Position numbers and translations under genes: made by a program. From an uncultured bacterium (GTDB lineage: Bacteria; Sysuimicrobiota; Sysuimicrobiia; Sysuimicrobiales; Sysuimicrobiaceae): DNA of 64,000 nucleotides. Below the pieces are notes generated by a model that saw nothing but the letters and a program-made list of their open reading frames with translations, did not search any database and was not told the DNA's origin. Shown in pieces: positions 38,057 to 47,110 of this stretch (its first letter is position 1; every line of letters starts with the position of its first letter). The DNA lies in contig CALIMJ010000006.1 of the NCBI GenBank assembly GCA_938028835.1, forward strand, positions 145,710 to 209,709. The letters are read 5' to 3'.

Positions 38057-39805
38057 TCAGTACCGTCGCTCTTTGGGCTCGAAGCGCGTGATCACCACGG
38101 GCTTGTCCTCCAGCCGGAGCTCGCGGGCCGCAGCCCGCCACACCAGGGTGTGGCGCAGCCAGCGCGCATCGTCGCGCTCGGGGTAGTCCTCCCGGAAGTG
38201 GGTCCCGCGGCTCTCGGTACGGTGCAGGGCGCTGGCCGCGGTGGCCTCCGCCACGTCCAGCAGGCAGCCCGTCTCGAAGGCCTCCACCAGCTCCTGGTTG
38301 TACACCTGCCCCCGGTCCGCGAGGCCCACCCGGCGGTACCGCTCCTGCAGCTCCCACAGGCCCTGCAGGGCCTGCTGCAGGCCCCCGCGGTTGCGGAACA
38401 CCGAACCGTGCCGCTCCATGAGGTCCTGGAGCTCCAGCCGCAGGCGCGTGCAGGATTCCTGACCCCGGGCTCCCAACAGCCGCAGGAAGTGCTCAGCGGG
38501 GCCGTCCAGGGGCGCGGAGGGCGCAGCGGGCATGGCTCGGGAACGGGCCACCTTCGCCATGCCCTGCGCCGCGCGCCGGCCGAACACCAGGATGTCCACC
38601 AGGGAGTTGGTCCCCAGTCGGTTGGCCCCGTGCACGGACACGCACGCGCACTCTCCCGCTGCGTACAGCCCCTCCACCACCTGCCGCCGGCCGTCCCACA
38701 GGACCCGCCCCCACGTGTCCGTGGGGATCCCGCCCACCGCGTAGTGGGCCGTGGGCCGAACCGGGACCAGGTCCTGGGCAGGGTCCAGGCCAAGGTACGT
38801 GCGGATCAGGGCGGTGACCTCCGGGAGCTTGGTGCGCCGCACTTCCTCCGGGAGGTGGCGGAAGTCCAGAAACACGCAGTCGCCCCGCTTCCCGCCTCCC
38901 CGGCCCGCTTGGATCTCCCGGAAGATGGACCGGCTCACCACGTCCCGGGGCGCCAGCTCCAGGAGGTTGGGAGCGTACCGGTCCATGAACCGCTCGCCCA
39001 GCCCGTTGACCAGGTAGGCACCTTCTCCGCGGGAGGCCTCGGACAGCAAGATCCCCCGTCCGTAGATGCCCGTGGGGTGGAACTGGTAGAACTCCATGTC
39101 CTCCAGCGGCACCCCGCGGCGCCAGACCAGCGCCGGCCCATCCCCGGTCAACGTCACCCCGTTGGTGGTGGTCCGGTAGATCTGGCCCCACCCACCCGTG
39201 GCCAGCAGCACGGCCTTCGCCCGTACGCCGTGCAGGCCCCCGCGCCGCACGTCCCAGGCCAGAACCCCCGAGCACGCTCCCTCCTCCACCCACACGTCCA
39301 CCACCAGGAACTCGTCGAAAAACCGCACCCCCCGCCGCAGGCACTGCTGGTACAGGGTGTGCAGGATCATCTGCCCGGTGCGGTCCGCGGCGTACACGGA
39401 CCGTGCCAGGGGTCGCTCGCCGAAGTTGCGGGTGTGTCCCCCGGCCCGCACCCGCTGCTCGATGCGGCCGTCCGGGGCTCGGTCGAAGGGAAAGCCCATG
39501 TGCTCCAGCTCGTACACCACCCGGATGGCCTCGAAGCACAGGATCTCCACCGCGTCCTGGTCCGCGAGGTAGTCCCCGCCCTTCACGGTGTCGAAGGCGT
39601 GCCACTCGGGGCGATCCTCCTCCGCGTGCCCCAGGGCCGCGCCCATGCCGCCCTGTGCGGCGCCCGTGTGGGAGCGCAACGGGTGCACCTTGCTGAACAC
39701 CGCCACGCGAAGGTCCGGGTGGCGTGAGAGCTCCAGGGCCGCGTACAGCCCCGCTCCGCCACCGCCCACCACCACCGCGTCGAACTCGTGCCAGACCACC
39801 TCCAT
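38057..39805 (-). CDS. Succinate-dehydrogenase/fumarate-reductase-type FAD flavoprotein (orphan SdhA/FrdA-like)
   Basis: 'FDAVVVGGGGAGLYAALE' FAD fingerprint, 'RSHTGAAQGG' (the His for covalent FAD), 'HYAVGGI', 'HGANRLGTNSL', and a C-terminal helical domain 'HRTESRGTHFREDYPERDD'. The ATG at 39803-39805 was located in the DNA. No sdhB or sdhC lies adjacent. Confidence 0.8.
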   Translation of the reverse strand: MEVVWHEFDAVVVGGGGAGLYAALELSRHPDLRVAVFSKVHPLRSHTGAAQGGMGAALGHAEEDRPEWHAFDTVKGGDYLADQDAVEILCFEAIRVVYELEHMGFPFDRAPDGRIEQRVRAGGHTRNFGERPLARSVYAADRTGQMILHTLYQQCLRRGVRFFDEFLVVDVWVEEGACSGVLAWDVRRGGLHGVRAKAVLLATGGWGQIYRTTTNGVTLTGDGPALVWRRGVPLEDMEFYQFHPTGIYGRGILLSEASRGEGAYLVNGLGERFMDRYAPNLLELAPRDVVSRSIFREIQAGRGGGKRGDCVFLDFRHLPEEVRRTKLPEVTALIRTYLGLDPAQDLVPVRPTAHYAVGGIPTDTWGRVLWDGRRQVVEGLYAAGECACVSVHGANRLGTNSLVDILVFGRRAAQGMAKVARSRAMPAAPSAPLDGPAEHFLRLLGARGQESCTRLRLELQDLMERHGSVFRNRGGLQQALQGLWELQERYRRVGLADRGQVYNQELVEAFETGCLLDVAEATAASALHRTESRGTHFREDYPERDDARWLRHTLVWRAAARELRLEDKPVVITRFEPKERRY

Positions 39806-39837
39806 GGTCCCCTCCGACGTGCGTGGGAGAGTTGAGC

Positions 39838-46008: not shown

Positions 46009-46024
46009 GTCCGCGAGAGCCCCT

Positions 46025-47110
46025 GTGGCCGCGTACCGAATCGGTGTCCTGAAGGGCGACGGCATCGGGCCCGAGGTGGTCCCCGCGGCGGTGGACCTGG
46101 CGGACCTGTCGGCCCGCGCTGCGGGCCTCTCCGTGGAGTGGGTGGAGCTGCCCGTGGGGCTGGAGGCGTACGGGCAGCTGGGCGACACCCTCCCGCCGCA
46201 GACCGTGGAAGCCCTCCGGGGCTGCCACGGGTGGGTGCTGGGGCCTGTGGAGCACCACCGCTATGACCCCCGGCTTCCAAGCATGCGTAACCCCAGCGGG
46301 ACCCTGCGAAGGCTTTTCGACCTCTACGCCAACGAGCGGCCTGCCCGCAACCTCCCGGGGGTGCCCAGCCGGTACGAGGGTGTGGACCTCGTGGTGGTGC
46401 GGGAGAACACCGAGGGCTTCTACGCCGACCGCAACGTCCTGGAGGGCGACGCCGAGCTTTTGGTGACCCCCGACGTGGTGGTCAGTCTCCGGGTGGTCAC
46501 CCGGCGCGCGTGCCAGCGGATCGCAGAGTACGCTTTCCAGCTGGCCCGCCGCCGCGCCCGTCCGGGCCGGGTGACCGCGGTCCACAAGGCCAACGTCCTC
46601 CGGCGGGGCGACGGGCTGTTTTTGGAGTGCTGTCGGTCGGTGGCGTCCCGGTACCCCGACGTGGCGTTCGACCACGTGCACGTGGACGCGGCCGCGTATT
46701 TCCTCGTGCGCGAGCCGCAGCGCTACGACGTGCTGGTCACCACCAACCTGTTCGGCGACATCCTGAGCGACCAGGCGGCGGGGCTGGTGGGCAGCCTGGG
46801 CGTCGCGCCGTCCCTGAACGCCGGCGACGGGTACGCCATGGCCCAGGCGGTTCACGGATCGGCCCCGGACATCGCGGGACGGGGGGTTGCCAACCCCACT
46901 GCGGAGATCCTGTCCGTGGCGATGCTGTTCGAGTGGCTGGGCCGGCGGTTCGACGACCCCGCGGCCACCGAGGCCGCCCGCCGCCTGGAGGAAGCCGTCG
47001 GCGCGGCGCTTTCCGCGGGTGTGCGGACGCCGGACCTAGGCGGGTCGGCCACCACCGCGGAGTTCGCCCGGGCGGTGCGGGCTCACCTGGCCCCTGGTAG
47101 CATGCTTTGA
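46025..47110 (+). CDS. Isocitrate/isopropylmalate/tartrate dehydrogenase-family enzyme
   Basis: 'YRIGVLKGDGIGPEVV' and 'NLFGDILSDQAAGLVGSLGVAPSLN' form the beta-decarboxylating dehydrogenase signature. Confidence 0.8.
   Translation: MAAYRIGVLKGDGIGPEVVPAAVDLADLSARAAGLSVEWVELPVGLEAYGQLGDTLPPQTVEALRGCHGWVLGPVEHHRYDPRLPSMRNPSGTLRRLFDLYANERPARNLPGVPSRYEGVDLVVVRENTEGFYADRNVLEGDAELLVTPDVVVSLRVVTRRACQRIAEYAFQLARRRARPGRVTAVHKANVLRRGDGLFLECCRSVASRYPDVAFDHVHVDAAAYFLVREPQRYDVLVTTNLFGDILSDQAAGLVGSLGVAPSLNAGDGYAMAQAVHGSAPDIAGRGVANPTAEILSVAMLFEWLGRRFDDPAATEAARRLEEAVGAALSAGVRTPDLGGSATTAEFARAVRAHLAPGSML

Follow-up and report, generated by a model that had tools for sequence, protein, structure and literature searches.

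In the 64-kb window analysed here (64,000 nucleotides of contig CALIMJ010000006.1 from an uncultured bacterium of the phylum Sysuimicrobiota, numbered from its first letter), a gene for a flavoprotein of the succinate dehydrogenase (SDH) family, SdhA, is found in an operon with genes for a PrpF-family isomerase and a tripartite tricarboxylate transporter (TTT), with no gene for another subunit of complex II beside it. The question raised by this locus is what such a flavoprotein does there. Automatic annotation names the product "succinate dehydrogenase flavoprotein", metabolic reconstructions count it as a duplicate gene of the tricarboxylic acid (TCA) cycle, and a paper on the Sysuimicrobiota (PMC11604079) counts it merely as a second sdhA. 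The evidence points instead to a paralogue that was recruited to a catabolic operon for organic acids and whose pocket was remodelled; the protein is called SdhA* below. As to the function of the whole cluster, we lean, with limited confidence, towards a GntR-controlled pathway for the uptake and oxidation of a free (non-CoA) polycarboxylate of the tricarballylate/aconitate type.

Genes of the window were called from the GC1/GC2/GC3 frame pattern and then checked by translation, and families were assigned by Pfam and NCBIfam profile scans of the window proteins. A sequence-only reading of the same DNA had recognized seven genes at 38057-47110; all seven are real, and their coordinates and families were reproduced by frame analysis, translation and the profile scans, the two end coordinates coinciding with the sdhA* and isoDH stop codons. 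The genes form two divergent operons, prpF-tctC-tctAB-sdhA* on the minus strand, followed by a gene for an ABM-domain protein, and gntR-ldh2-isoDH on the plus strand, followed by msrA (Table 1). Related loci are cited by our handles (L001 and so on).

SdhA* is an additional member of the SdhA family

SdhA* scored 771.7 bits on TIGR01816, the SdhA equivalog model (cutoff 727.35), and fell below the cutoff of all fumarate reductase, NadB and flavocytochrome models, the fumarate reductase models giving 524-533 bits. Its closest solved relative is the SdhA of Mycobacterium smegmatis Sdh2 (PDB 6LUM, 687 bits), and it is about 63% identical to the SdhA of L004, a metagenome-assembled genome (MAG) labelled Armatimonadota in which a canonical sdhC-sdhD-sdhA-sdhB operon lies beside icd, mdh and sucCD. 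The sequence-only reading had called the protein SdhA-like and had proposed that profiles be used to separate SdhA from NadB and TcuA. This separation placed it in the SdhA family, with TIGR01816 above and NadB below cutoff, and with about 63% identity and the covalent-FAD His and catalytic residues kept it is a genuine SdhA-family paralogue and not a distant relative.

Two other identities were considered and rejected. As NadB, the protein scored 393.4 bits on TIGR00551 (cutoff 452.75), it has Ala at the position of NadB Glu121, and the covalent-FAD His is present. As TcuA, it was not recovered by tblastn with three TcuA proteins, which gave no match in the window at E<=1e-5, and the TcuA model was absent among the best 25 of its 45 NCBIfam matches. 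SdhA* has 582 residues and a Succ_DH_flav_C domain, whereas TcuA proteins have about 470-500 residues and lack this domain. A homologue of TcuB was likewise absent from the 64-kb window. By sequence criteria, SdhA* departs from the SdhA family only at the pocket Phe and in its operon setting.

No match to sdhB, sdhC or sdhD was found by tblastn anywhere in the window. The window PrpF is 95% identical to that of contig L005 of the hot-spring MAG 'Candidatus Tepidifontimicrobium thermophilum' HHBFW-2_201803_bins_14 (Sysuimicrobiota, CSP1-3). According to Table S5 of PMC11604079, most Tepidifontimicrobium MAGs, including this type MAG, have two K00239 (sdhA) genes and one each of sdhB, sdhC and sdhD; the Sysuimicrobium and Caldifonticola MAGs carry a single sdhA. 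Since the Tepidifontimicrobium MAGs list two sdhA genes for a single sdhBCD set, the window gene is, on these genus-level counts, an extra copy of sdhA. It had been described as an orphan, which is correct for the window but not beyond it, as the genus has one sdhBCD set.

The substrate pocket of the SdhA* clade

The 33 closest database homologues of SdhA* (the SdhA* clade) were compared with the 86 next-best SdhA proteins of canonical type in the match list. Within the clade the identities are 69% or higher, and to the canonical proteins they do not exceed 69%. The pocket motif QR[VIM]RAGGHT was present in 33/33 members of the clade and in 0/86 canonical proteins, all 86 of which have QR-[RPK]FGGH[TS]. 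In SdhA* itself the motif is QRVRAGGHT, in which Ala121 replaces the Phe before GG (Phe119 in Escherichia coli) and one residue is inserted. Phe119 of E. coli SdhA presumably lines the dicarboxylate site, an assumption of ours for which a literature search found no open paper. Other changes fixed in and specific to the clade include H143Q, M357V, Y41H and N60H (E. coli-like numbering), and the flavinylation residue His46 and the catalytic residues His243, Ser255, Glu256, Arg287, His354 and Arg396 are conserved in all 33 members.

Ala121 of SdhA* aligns with Glu121 of E. coli NadB (R120-E121-G122-G123 in 1CHU). In NadB this Glu touches the C2 amino group of aspartate, and enzymes of the SDH and fumarate reductase (FRD) type have "a neutral residue" at this position (PMC10249383). 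In SdhA* the pocket would be opened beside C2/C3 of the succinate backbone, in line with a substituted succinate as substrate. If this model is true, one residue (Phe119 in SdhA, Glu121 in NadB, Ala here) would tune the SDH/FRD/NadB superfamily towards C2-substituted succinates.

A wider set of SdhA-like proteins, taken as 117 representatives of 50%-identity clusters (P0361-P0510), was also inspected; at this level the SdhA* clade merges into clusters of canonical SdhA and is not separated from them. Thirty-five of the representatives are non-aromatic at the Phe119 position (15 Leu, 8 Ala, 3 Met, 2 Asn, 2 Gly, 1 Ser, 1 Val and 3 alignment gaps), and most of these 35 also lack the covalent-FAD His. 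Pocket variants across the SdhA-like superfamily thus represent a large, uncharacterised diversity.

Different flavoproteins occupy the same slot in related clusters

Members of the SdhA* clade adjoin a PrpF homologue in three gene orders besides that of the window. In L013, sdhA*-prpF has TctC, TctAB, PrpD-like and CitMHS genes upstream, and in L063/L065 and in L090 the order is TctC-sdhA*-prpF with a gap of 20-30 bp. A 389/426-aa gene upstream of the orphan sdhA in L002 and L089 was considered as a further relative of prpF and rejected, its product being secreted, without Pfam match and unrelated to PrpF.

The closest clusters outside the genus carry a different flavoprotein. Five metagenomic loci (L014, L016, L018, L020 and L021) encode PrpF, TctC and TctAB proteins that are 68-70%, 64-68% and 64-80% identical, respectively, to those of the window, in the order PrpB-like lyase, flavoprotein of about 500 residues, PrpF, TctC, TctAB. 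This flavoprotein is TcuA: those of L014 and L020 scored 528 and 540 bits on NF006130 (TcuA; cutoff 369), and those of L016, L018 and L021 are 77-83% identical to the L014 protein by tblastn. Over the closest non-congeneric PrpF-TctC-TctAB clusters, the adjoining TcuA scored 513-688 bits on this model. L078 and L087 pair a PrpF homologue with both TcuA and TcuB (TIGR02484, 413 and 430 bits against a cutoff of 247), and the TcuA of L078, scanned in that locus, reached 594 bits on TIGR02485 (cutoff 372). In L078 PrpF comes after a PrpR-type activator and is followed directly by Iso_dh.

A third arrangement was found in L091, a distant locus of 72.5% GC, in which orthologues of GntR (60% identical), PrpF (59%), Ldh_2 (55%), Iso_dh (69%), TctC (56%) and TctAB (53%) are encoded. 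Its layout is GntR, then Aldedh, SdhA-like, SdhB, SdhC, SdhD, PrpF, Ldh_2 and Iso_dh, then CitMHS, then TctC, TctAB, PrpB-like and two PrpD-like genes. The L091 flavoprotein is of a different SDH/FRD subfamily (38% identical) and has its own Fe-S and anchor subunits. Three non-orthologous SDH-type flavoproteins therefore alternate in one slot: TcuA, which TcuB may accompany, the flavoprotein of a four-subunit SDH-like complex, and SdhA*, an orphan. SdhA* fills the slot held by TcuA in orthologous clusters. This alternation beside PrpF, a TTT and either or both of Iso_dh and a PrpB-like lyase points to non-orthologous displacement in one pathway, and argues that sdhA* is not a chance neighbour.

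The claim that the window genes form a functionally linked unit is supported by the co-occurrence of orthologues of six components, in another order, on the distant L091. The proposed analogy to TcuA holds for genome position, since TcuA fills the slot in the closest non-congeneric clusters, but not for sequence, since SdhA* is no TcuA. A comparison of gene neighbourhoods, which had been suggested as a check, showed that PrpF and Ldh_2 homologues recur with TTT, TcuA and Iso_dh genes (L091, L041 and L078). In L041 (NICF_comb_assmDRAFT_10000247), a 21-kb stretch encodes two TcuA paralogues, Ldh_2, an aldehyde dehydrogenase, PrpF, CitMHS, a PrpB-like lyase, a D-2-hydroxyacid dehydrogenase, TctA, a PrpD-like protein and two GntR proteins, which makes it the richest version of the neighbourhood among the loci compared.

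Similar clusters occur in Hydrogenophaga sp. BPS33 (L095, plasmid pBPS33-1, 263737-280873), with LysR, TctC, tcuA, LeuC-like, LeuD-like, TctC and PrpF genes, and in Variovorax paradoxus (L094, CP063167.1), with TctC, PrpF, three FAD-binding proteins and prpB. These two organisms are cultured Betaproteobacteria, and their clusters are usable as experimental proxies. The association of a TcuA-type dehydrogenase with PrpF, TTT and Iso_dh or a PrpB-like lyase is widespread. The combination had been said not to be a described operon, and a literature search agreed: within the library searched, no paper was found that describes such a linkage, or that links tcuA or tcuB with PrpF or an aconitate isomerase.

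Transporter, isomerase and dehydrogenases

A TctA(B)C transporter had been predicted, and its TctA and TctC families were confirmed; TctB is represented only by a weak C-terminal domain fused to TctA. The TctA part covers residues 18-435 of the fusion and the TctB-like part residues 507-644, the latter below the PF07331 cutoff of 29.1. The tctB and tctA genes are usually separate. Fusions of 649-650 residues are also found in L001, L091 and L092, and the arrangement is kept in orthologues down to 53% identity.

The prediction of a PrpF-type isomerase was borne out by the PF04303 match (Table 1) and by the catalytic Lys/Cys pair: Lys64 and Cys98 correspond to K73 and C107 of Shewanella SoPrpF and are invariant in 27 sequences. 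The protein is below cutoff on the PrpF model TIGR02334 (371.7 against 440.55) and likewise misses the GalD equivalog cutoff. Enzymes of the PrpF family interconvert trans- and cis-aconitate (PMC5690661; TarA, PMC11495376). None of acnD, prpB, prpC or prpD is present in the 64-kb window.

The product of isoDH had been described as like a tartrate or isopropylmalate dehydrogenase. The tartrate part was rejected, since the protein scored 245.4 on TIGR02089 (cutoff 470.4) and its closest structures are those of other enzymes; archaeal isopropylmalate dehydrogenases (IPMDH) are among its nearest relatives, together with Thermus homoisocitrate dehydrogenase (HICDH; best PDB match, 276 bits) and bacterial NAD-isocitrate dehydrogenases (ICDH). 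Its top profile is the archaeal IPMDH/homoisocitrate subfamily model. An identity as HICDH is likewise unsupported, as Arg85 of the Thermus enzyme aligns with Gly. In the specificity loop, RNPSGTLR, this Gly is accompanied by Ser-Gly in place of the Leu-Leu of IPMDH and by N-x-S in place of the S-x-N of ICDH. The loop is polar, which suggests a polar gamma substituent in the predicted substrate, as in isocitrate-type compounds. The Ldh_2-family assignment of the other dehydrogenase was upheld by PF02615 and by the HxHG family motif. This protein is below cutoff on every equivalog model (best, sulfolactate dehydrogenase, 230 against 500), and its homologues adjoin TcuA in L041 and PrpF and Iso_dh in L091.

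Proposed pathway and its alternatives

From gene content, families, operon layout, clade signature and conserved neighbourhoods we infer a scheme whose substrate, reaction order, product stereochemistry and electron acceptor would be as follows. TctC and the TctA-TctB fusion would import an acid of the tricarballylate/aconitate type. SdhA*, with its pocket widened by the Phe-to-Ala change and the insertion, would desaturate the succinyl moiety, for example converting tricarballylate to aconitate; by analogy with the conversion of succinate to fumarate the product would most likely be the trans isomer. Because anti-elimination of the SDH type should give this fumarate-like isomer, an isomerase would be needed before aconitase, and the PrpF homologue would turn the desaturated product into the cis, hydratable isomer. 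A hydratase encoded outside the cluster, such as the housekeeping aconitase, would then yield an isocitrate-type 3-substituted malate, from which Iso_dh would produce a 2-oxo acid by oxidative decarboxylation (2-oxoglutarate if the substrate is tricarballylate). Ldh_2 would interconvert a 2-hydroxy and a 2-oxo acid of the pathway, and at loci with a PrpB-like lyase instead of Iso_dh the lyase would cleave the same isocitrate-type intermediate. This reading is the most economical one and gives each gene of the minus-strand operon a role. Import of a tri- or dicarboxylate and its conversion to a TCA intermediate had been proposed from the sequence; a linked catabolic unit is supported, and the substrate is still assigned by inference.

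The electrons from SdhA* probably leave via the single housekeeping SdhBCD, as is suggested by the nearly full retention of canonical positions and by the 2:1 ratio of sdhA to sdhB. It is conceivable, although we doubt it more than we believe it, that SdhA* is a swappable complex II flavoprotein that docks on the sole SdhB/C/D to form a tricarballylate (or other substituted-succinate):quinone oxidoreductase, making TcuA and TcuB unnecessary. If so, this would be the first bacterial case of expansion of the substrate range of complex II by an alternative catalytic subunit, and would also amount to a general CoA-independent route for substituted succinates, which would be desaturated, isomerised, hydrated and then decarboxylated or cleaved.

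Several observations weigh against a tricarballylate/aconitate pathway. SdhA* passes the SdhA equivalog model, and so may simply oxidise succinate; canonical SdhA has 248 columns with a conservation of 95% or more, and SdhA* retains 219 of these (88%); and in L002/L003 and L088/L089 members of its clade have no PrpF or TTT gene nearby. Salmonella TcuA is reported to give cis-aconitate directly, so that the need for an isomerase is unexplained. Ldh_2 and Iso_dh are tied to PrpF only in the genus of the window, in L091 and partly in L041 and L078, and no pathway step is assigned to Ldh_2. No hydratase, Fe-S partner or TcuB is encoded in the cluster or in the 64-kb window, where lyase and PrpD-like genes were also not found. 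Finally, the closest PDB match of the PrpF homologue is 3-methylitaconate isomerase (3g7k, 367 bits against 313 for SoPrpF), and since its best structural relative is a methylitaconate isomerase, a C5/C6 branched dicarboxylate is equally compatible with this Mii-like relationship.

The points concerning SdhA* would fit a second housekeeping isoform of the complex II flavoprotein that oxidises succinate, for example in another oxygen or temperature regime. Its place behind tctAB would then be an accident of the lineage, and PrpF and TTT would form a trans-aconitate module like tarAB, a two-gene system that provides a precedent for trans-aconitate assimilation (PMC11495376). The TIGR01816 score, the intact catalytic residues and covalent-FAD His, the 88% of conserved canonical columns kept and the orphan copies without PrpF in L002 and L088/L089 agree with such an isoform. 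However, the Phe-to-Ala change and the insertion are invariant in the clade at a residue that is Phe in all of the 86 canonical relatives, SdhA* adjoins PrpF in four gene orders, and TcuA or a full SDH-like complex occupies the same slot in orthologous clusters; we therefore consider a plain isoform unlikely.

The relationship of PrpF to 3-methylitaconate isomerase raises another alternative, that the substrates are branched dicarboxylates such as methylsuccinate, mesaconate, itaconate, citraconate or dimethylmaleate. SdhA* would form mesaconate, the Mii-like isomerase citraconate, a LeuCD-type hydratase 3-methylmalate and an IPMDH-like Iso_dh 2-oxobutyrate. The top profile of Iso_dh, the LeuCD-like hydratase encoded within the TcuA-PrpF cluster of Hydrogenophaga and the resemblance of the PrpB-like lyases of related loci to dimethylmalate or methylisocitrate lyases are in its favour, and the Phe-to-Ala change would suit a methyl group. 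On the other hand, proteins of the orthologous clusters score above cutoff on the curated models for TcuA and TcuB, models that bear the name of tricarballylate, the specificity loop of Iso_dh is polar and not hydrophobic, and the transporter belongs to the tricarboxylate family, albeit one of broad specificity. We regard this alternative as quite unlikely.

A reductive role for SdhA* was also considered, in which it would act as an aconitate or substituted-fumarate reductase and imported trans-aconitate would serve as an anaerobic electron sink, being reduced to tricarballylate as in rumen bacteria. The flavoproteins of SDH and FRD are generally known to be reversible, the isomerase could provide the preferred isomer, and the Sysuimicrobiota are predicted to be facultative anaerobes (PMC11604079). 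Against this, the cluster also encodes the oxidative Iso_dh and Ldh_2, the slot in orthologous loci is held by TcuA/TcuB, a catabolic dehydrogenase, and the best model is that of the "forward" SdhA (772 bits against 524-533 for the fumarate reductase models). A reductive function appears very improbable.

The divergent control region

The GntR/FCD regulator that had been recognized in the sequence has both expected domains (PF00392 and PF07729, Table 1). The 127-bp spacer between prpF and gntR contains a sigma-70-like promoter for gntR, P_gntR, consisting of TTGTCA, 17 nt and TACAAT (-10 at 44236-44241); the promoter scan gave this one match where 0.2 were expected. As the -10 element ends 7 nt ahead of the gntR ATG, gntR appears to be leaderless. 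A promoter for prpF, P_prpF, lies on the opposite strand (TTGACA, 17 nt, TATGCG, the -10 being the reverse complement of 44191-44196). The two promoters are back-to-back and their -35 elements overlap (44213-44219).

An alignment of 11 related loci revealed three invariant or nearly invariant blocks, ATTGTAT(A/G)C, TTGACAA and TGGTATGCG. The latter two, read on the other strand, constitute P_prpF, and ATTGTAT(A/G)C with the bases that follow it forms a GntR-type palindrome, which is TTGTATACAA in 7 of the 11 loci and TTGTATGCAA in the window and three close relatives; the window palindrome TTGCATACAA lies at 44231-44240. Since the two promoters share overlapping -35 elements and a conserved GntR-type palindrome, the GntR protein could plausibly control both operons together.

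The same region bears on whether gntR-ldh2-isoDH-msrA and prpF-tctC-tctAB-sdhA* are two unrelated operons that merely abut. Beyond the genus most loci with PrpF orthologues have no Ldh_2 and Iso_dh gene within 10 kb, and msrA and the ABM-domain gene are obvious passengers, as would be expected if they were independent. However, in L091 PrpF, Ldh_2 and Iso_dh are contiguous and co-directional, beside orthologues of TctC-TctAB and GntR; Iso_dh directly follows PrpF in L078; Ldh_2 adjoins TcuA in L041; and the two promoters have the overlapping -35 elements and the conserved palindrome in common. Independence of the two operons seems to us highly unlikely.

Comparison with known systems

The Salmonella tcuRABC system (TcuA, flavoprotein dehydrogenase; TcuB, Fe-S/haem electron shuttle; TcuC, transporter) follows the same logic as the window cluster, a transporter combined with a flavoprotein of the FAD_binding_2 superfamily that desaturates a substituted succinate for the TCA cycle, and orthologues of the PrpF-TTT core of the window adjoin genuine TcuA and TcuB. 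In contrast to Salmonella, the window has no TcuA, TcuB or TcuC, its transporter is a TTT, its regulator is a GntR instead of a LysR protein, and its flavoprotein is an SdhA paralogue with covalent-FAD His and Succ_DH_flav_C domain; an isomerase and two dehydrogenases are added. By analogy, the cluster would work like a tcu system extended by an aconitate-isomerase module, without being a member of the tcu family.

With the SdhA of complex II (E. coli; M. smegmatis Sdh2, PDB 6LUM) the window protein shares a TIGR01816 score above cutoff, the catalytic residues and the flavinylation His, but it is encoded away from sdhB/C/D, inside a transporter/isomerase operon, and differs by the pocket Ala, the insertion and H143Q, M357V, Y41H and N60H. 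NadB belongs to the same flavoprotein superfamily, stands alone and acts on a C2-substituted succinate (aspartate), with its specificity at the Glu121 position; the window protein has Ala there and keeps the covalent-FAD His, which NadB lacks.

The isomerase module resembles tarAB of Bacillus velezensis (TarA/TarB), tbrAB of B. thuringiensis (TbrA/TbrB) and the AcnD-PrpF pair of the 2-methylcitrate cycle in having an isomerase of the PrpF superfamily with catalytic Lys and Cys and, as in tarAB and tbrAB, in pairing it with a dedicated carboxylate transporter. It differs in that the transporter is a TTT and not of the MFS type, AcnD, PrpC and PrpB are absent, the PrpF equivalog cutoff is missed, and a desaturating flavoprotein and downstream dehydrogenases are added.

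The locus thus offers a recurrent and apparently undescribed pathway architecture, a candidate specificity-determining residue and a putative case of neo-functionalisation of a complex II subunit, and yields a specific prediction about the heterotrophy of an uncultured phylum, the Sysuimicrobiota (CSP1-3). It also raises the question of whether a single Fe-S/anchor module can serve two flavoproteins.

Gene layout and neighbouring genes

The features of the region are listed in Table 1. On the minus strand the intergenic gaps are 19 bp (prpF-tctC), 71 bp (tctC-tctAB), 32 bp (tctAB-sdhA*) and 20 bp (sdhA*-ABM), and on the plus strand gntR and ldh2 overlap by 4 bp, followed by gaps of 16 bp (ldh2-isoDH) and 15 bp (isoDH-msrA), so that the largest gap inside either operon is 71 bp. 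Terminator-like matches in the region were no commoner than expected by chance and their positions are inside genes. The start of prpF is ambiguous: GTG codons at 44121 and 44151 are each preceded by a Shine-Dalgarno-like sequence and both are conserved, and public gene calls differ accordingly (387 aa in L001 and L093, 397 aa in L092).

Table 1. Features of the cluster and its immediate flanks, in coordinates of the 64-kb window
Feature	Coordinates	Strand	Evidence
ABM-domain gene (104 aa), probable operon passenger	37722-38036	-	PF03992 77 bits
sdhA* (extra SdhA-family flavoprotein paralogue, 582 aa)	38057-39805	-	FAD_binding_2 358 bits; Succ_DH_flav_C 146 bits; TIGR01816 771.7 vs cutoff 727.35
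tctAB (TctA with C-terminal TctB-like domain, 650 aa)	39838-41790	-	PF01970 379.6 bits; PF07331 20 bits, E=7e-4
tctC (periplasmic/extracytoplasmic TTT solute-binding protein, 358 aa, signal peptide)	41862-42938	-	PF03401 38.3 bits vs cutoff 27
prpF-family allylic/cis-trans isomerase	42958-44121 (387 aa) or 42958-44151 (397 aa)	-	PF04303 419 bits
Shared divergent control region	44190-44248	.	Promoter scan, direct reading, alignment of 11 related loci
gntR/FCD transcriptional regulator (238 aa), probably leaderless	44249-44965	+	PF00392 64.3 bits; PF07729 103.5 bits
ldh2 (Ldh_2-family NAD(P)-dependent 2-hydroxy-/2-oxo-acid oxidoreductase, 348 aa)	44962-46008	+	PF02615 356 bits
isoDH (Iso_dh-family beta-decarboxylating 3-substituted-malate dehydrogenase, 361 aa)	46025-47110	+	PF00180 299.5 bits
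msrA (peptide methionine sulfoxide reductase), probable passenger	47126-47686	+	GCFWC motif

The cluster had been called an island, a term for which no sign of horizontal acquisition was found. The G+C content is about 72% and uniform along the full 64 kb, and the whole cluster with its flanking housekeeping genes is syntenic in L001, L005, L008, L010, L092 and L093, whose proteins are 79-95% identical to those of the window. Because the GC profile is flat and the synteny with flanking housekeeping genes is kept in the genus, a reading as a horizontally transferred island is unsupported; the cluster is a stable, conserved chromosomal gene cluster without sign of recent acquisition.

Of the two presumed passengers, the ABM-domain gene is kept in close relatives only (L005, L008, L092 and, partially, L001), and its product gives a weak match to heme-degrading models of the HmuQ/IsdG-like type (64 bits; cutoff 130). 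MsrA (PF01625) is found at the equivalent position in L001, L092 and L093.

Beyond the ABM-domain gene, after 267 bp, the minus strand at 34149-37454 encodes a thiolase and the alpha (CoA-binding/Succ_CoA_lig) and beta (ATP-grasp_5) subunits of an ADP-forming acetyl-CoA synthetase, a synteny kept in the genus (L001, L005 and L008). Nitrogen-assimilation genes lie at 28751-34161 and encode an ammonium transporter, a 400-aa protein without Pfam match, a flotillin/Band_7 protein and glutamine synthetase. At 56057-60963, as identified by synteny with L092, a DndB-like gene stands beside a 1186-aa gene of the SMC family.

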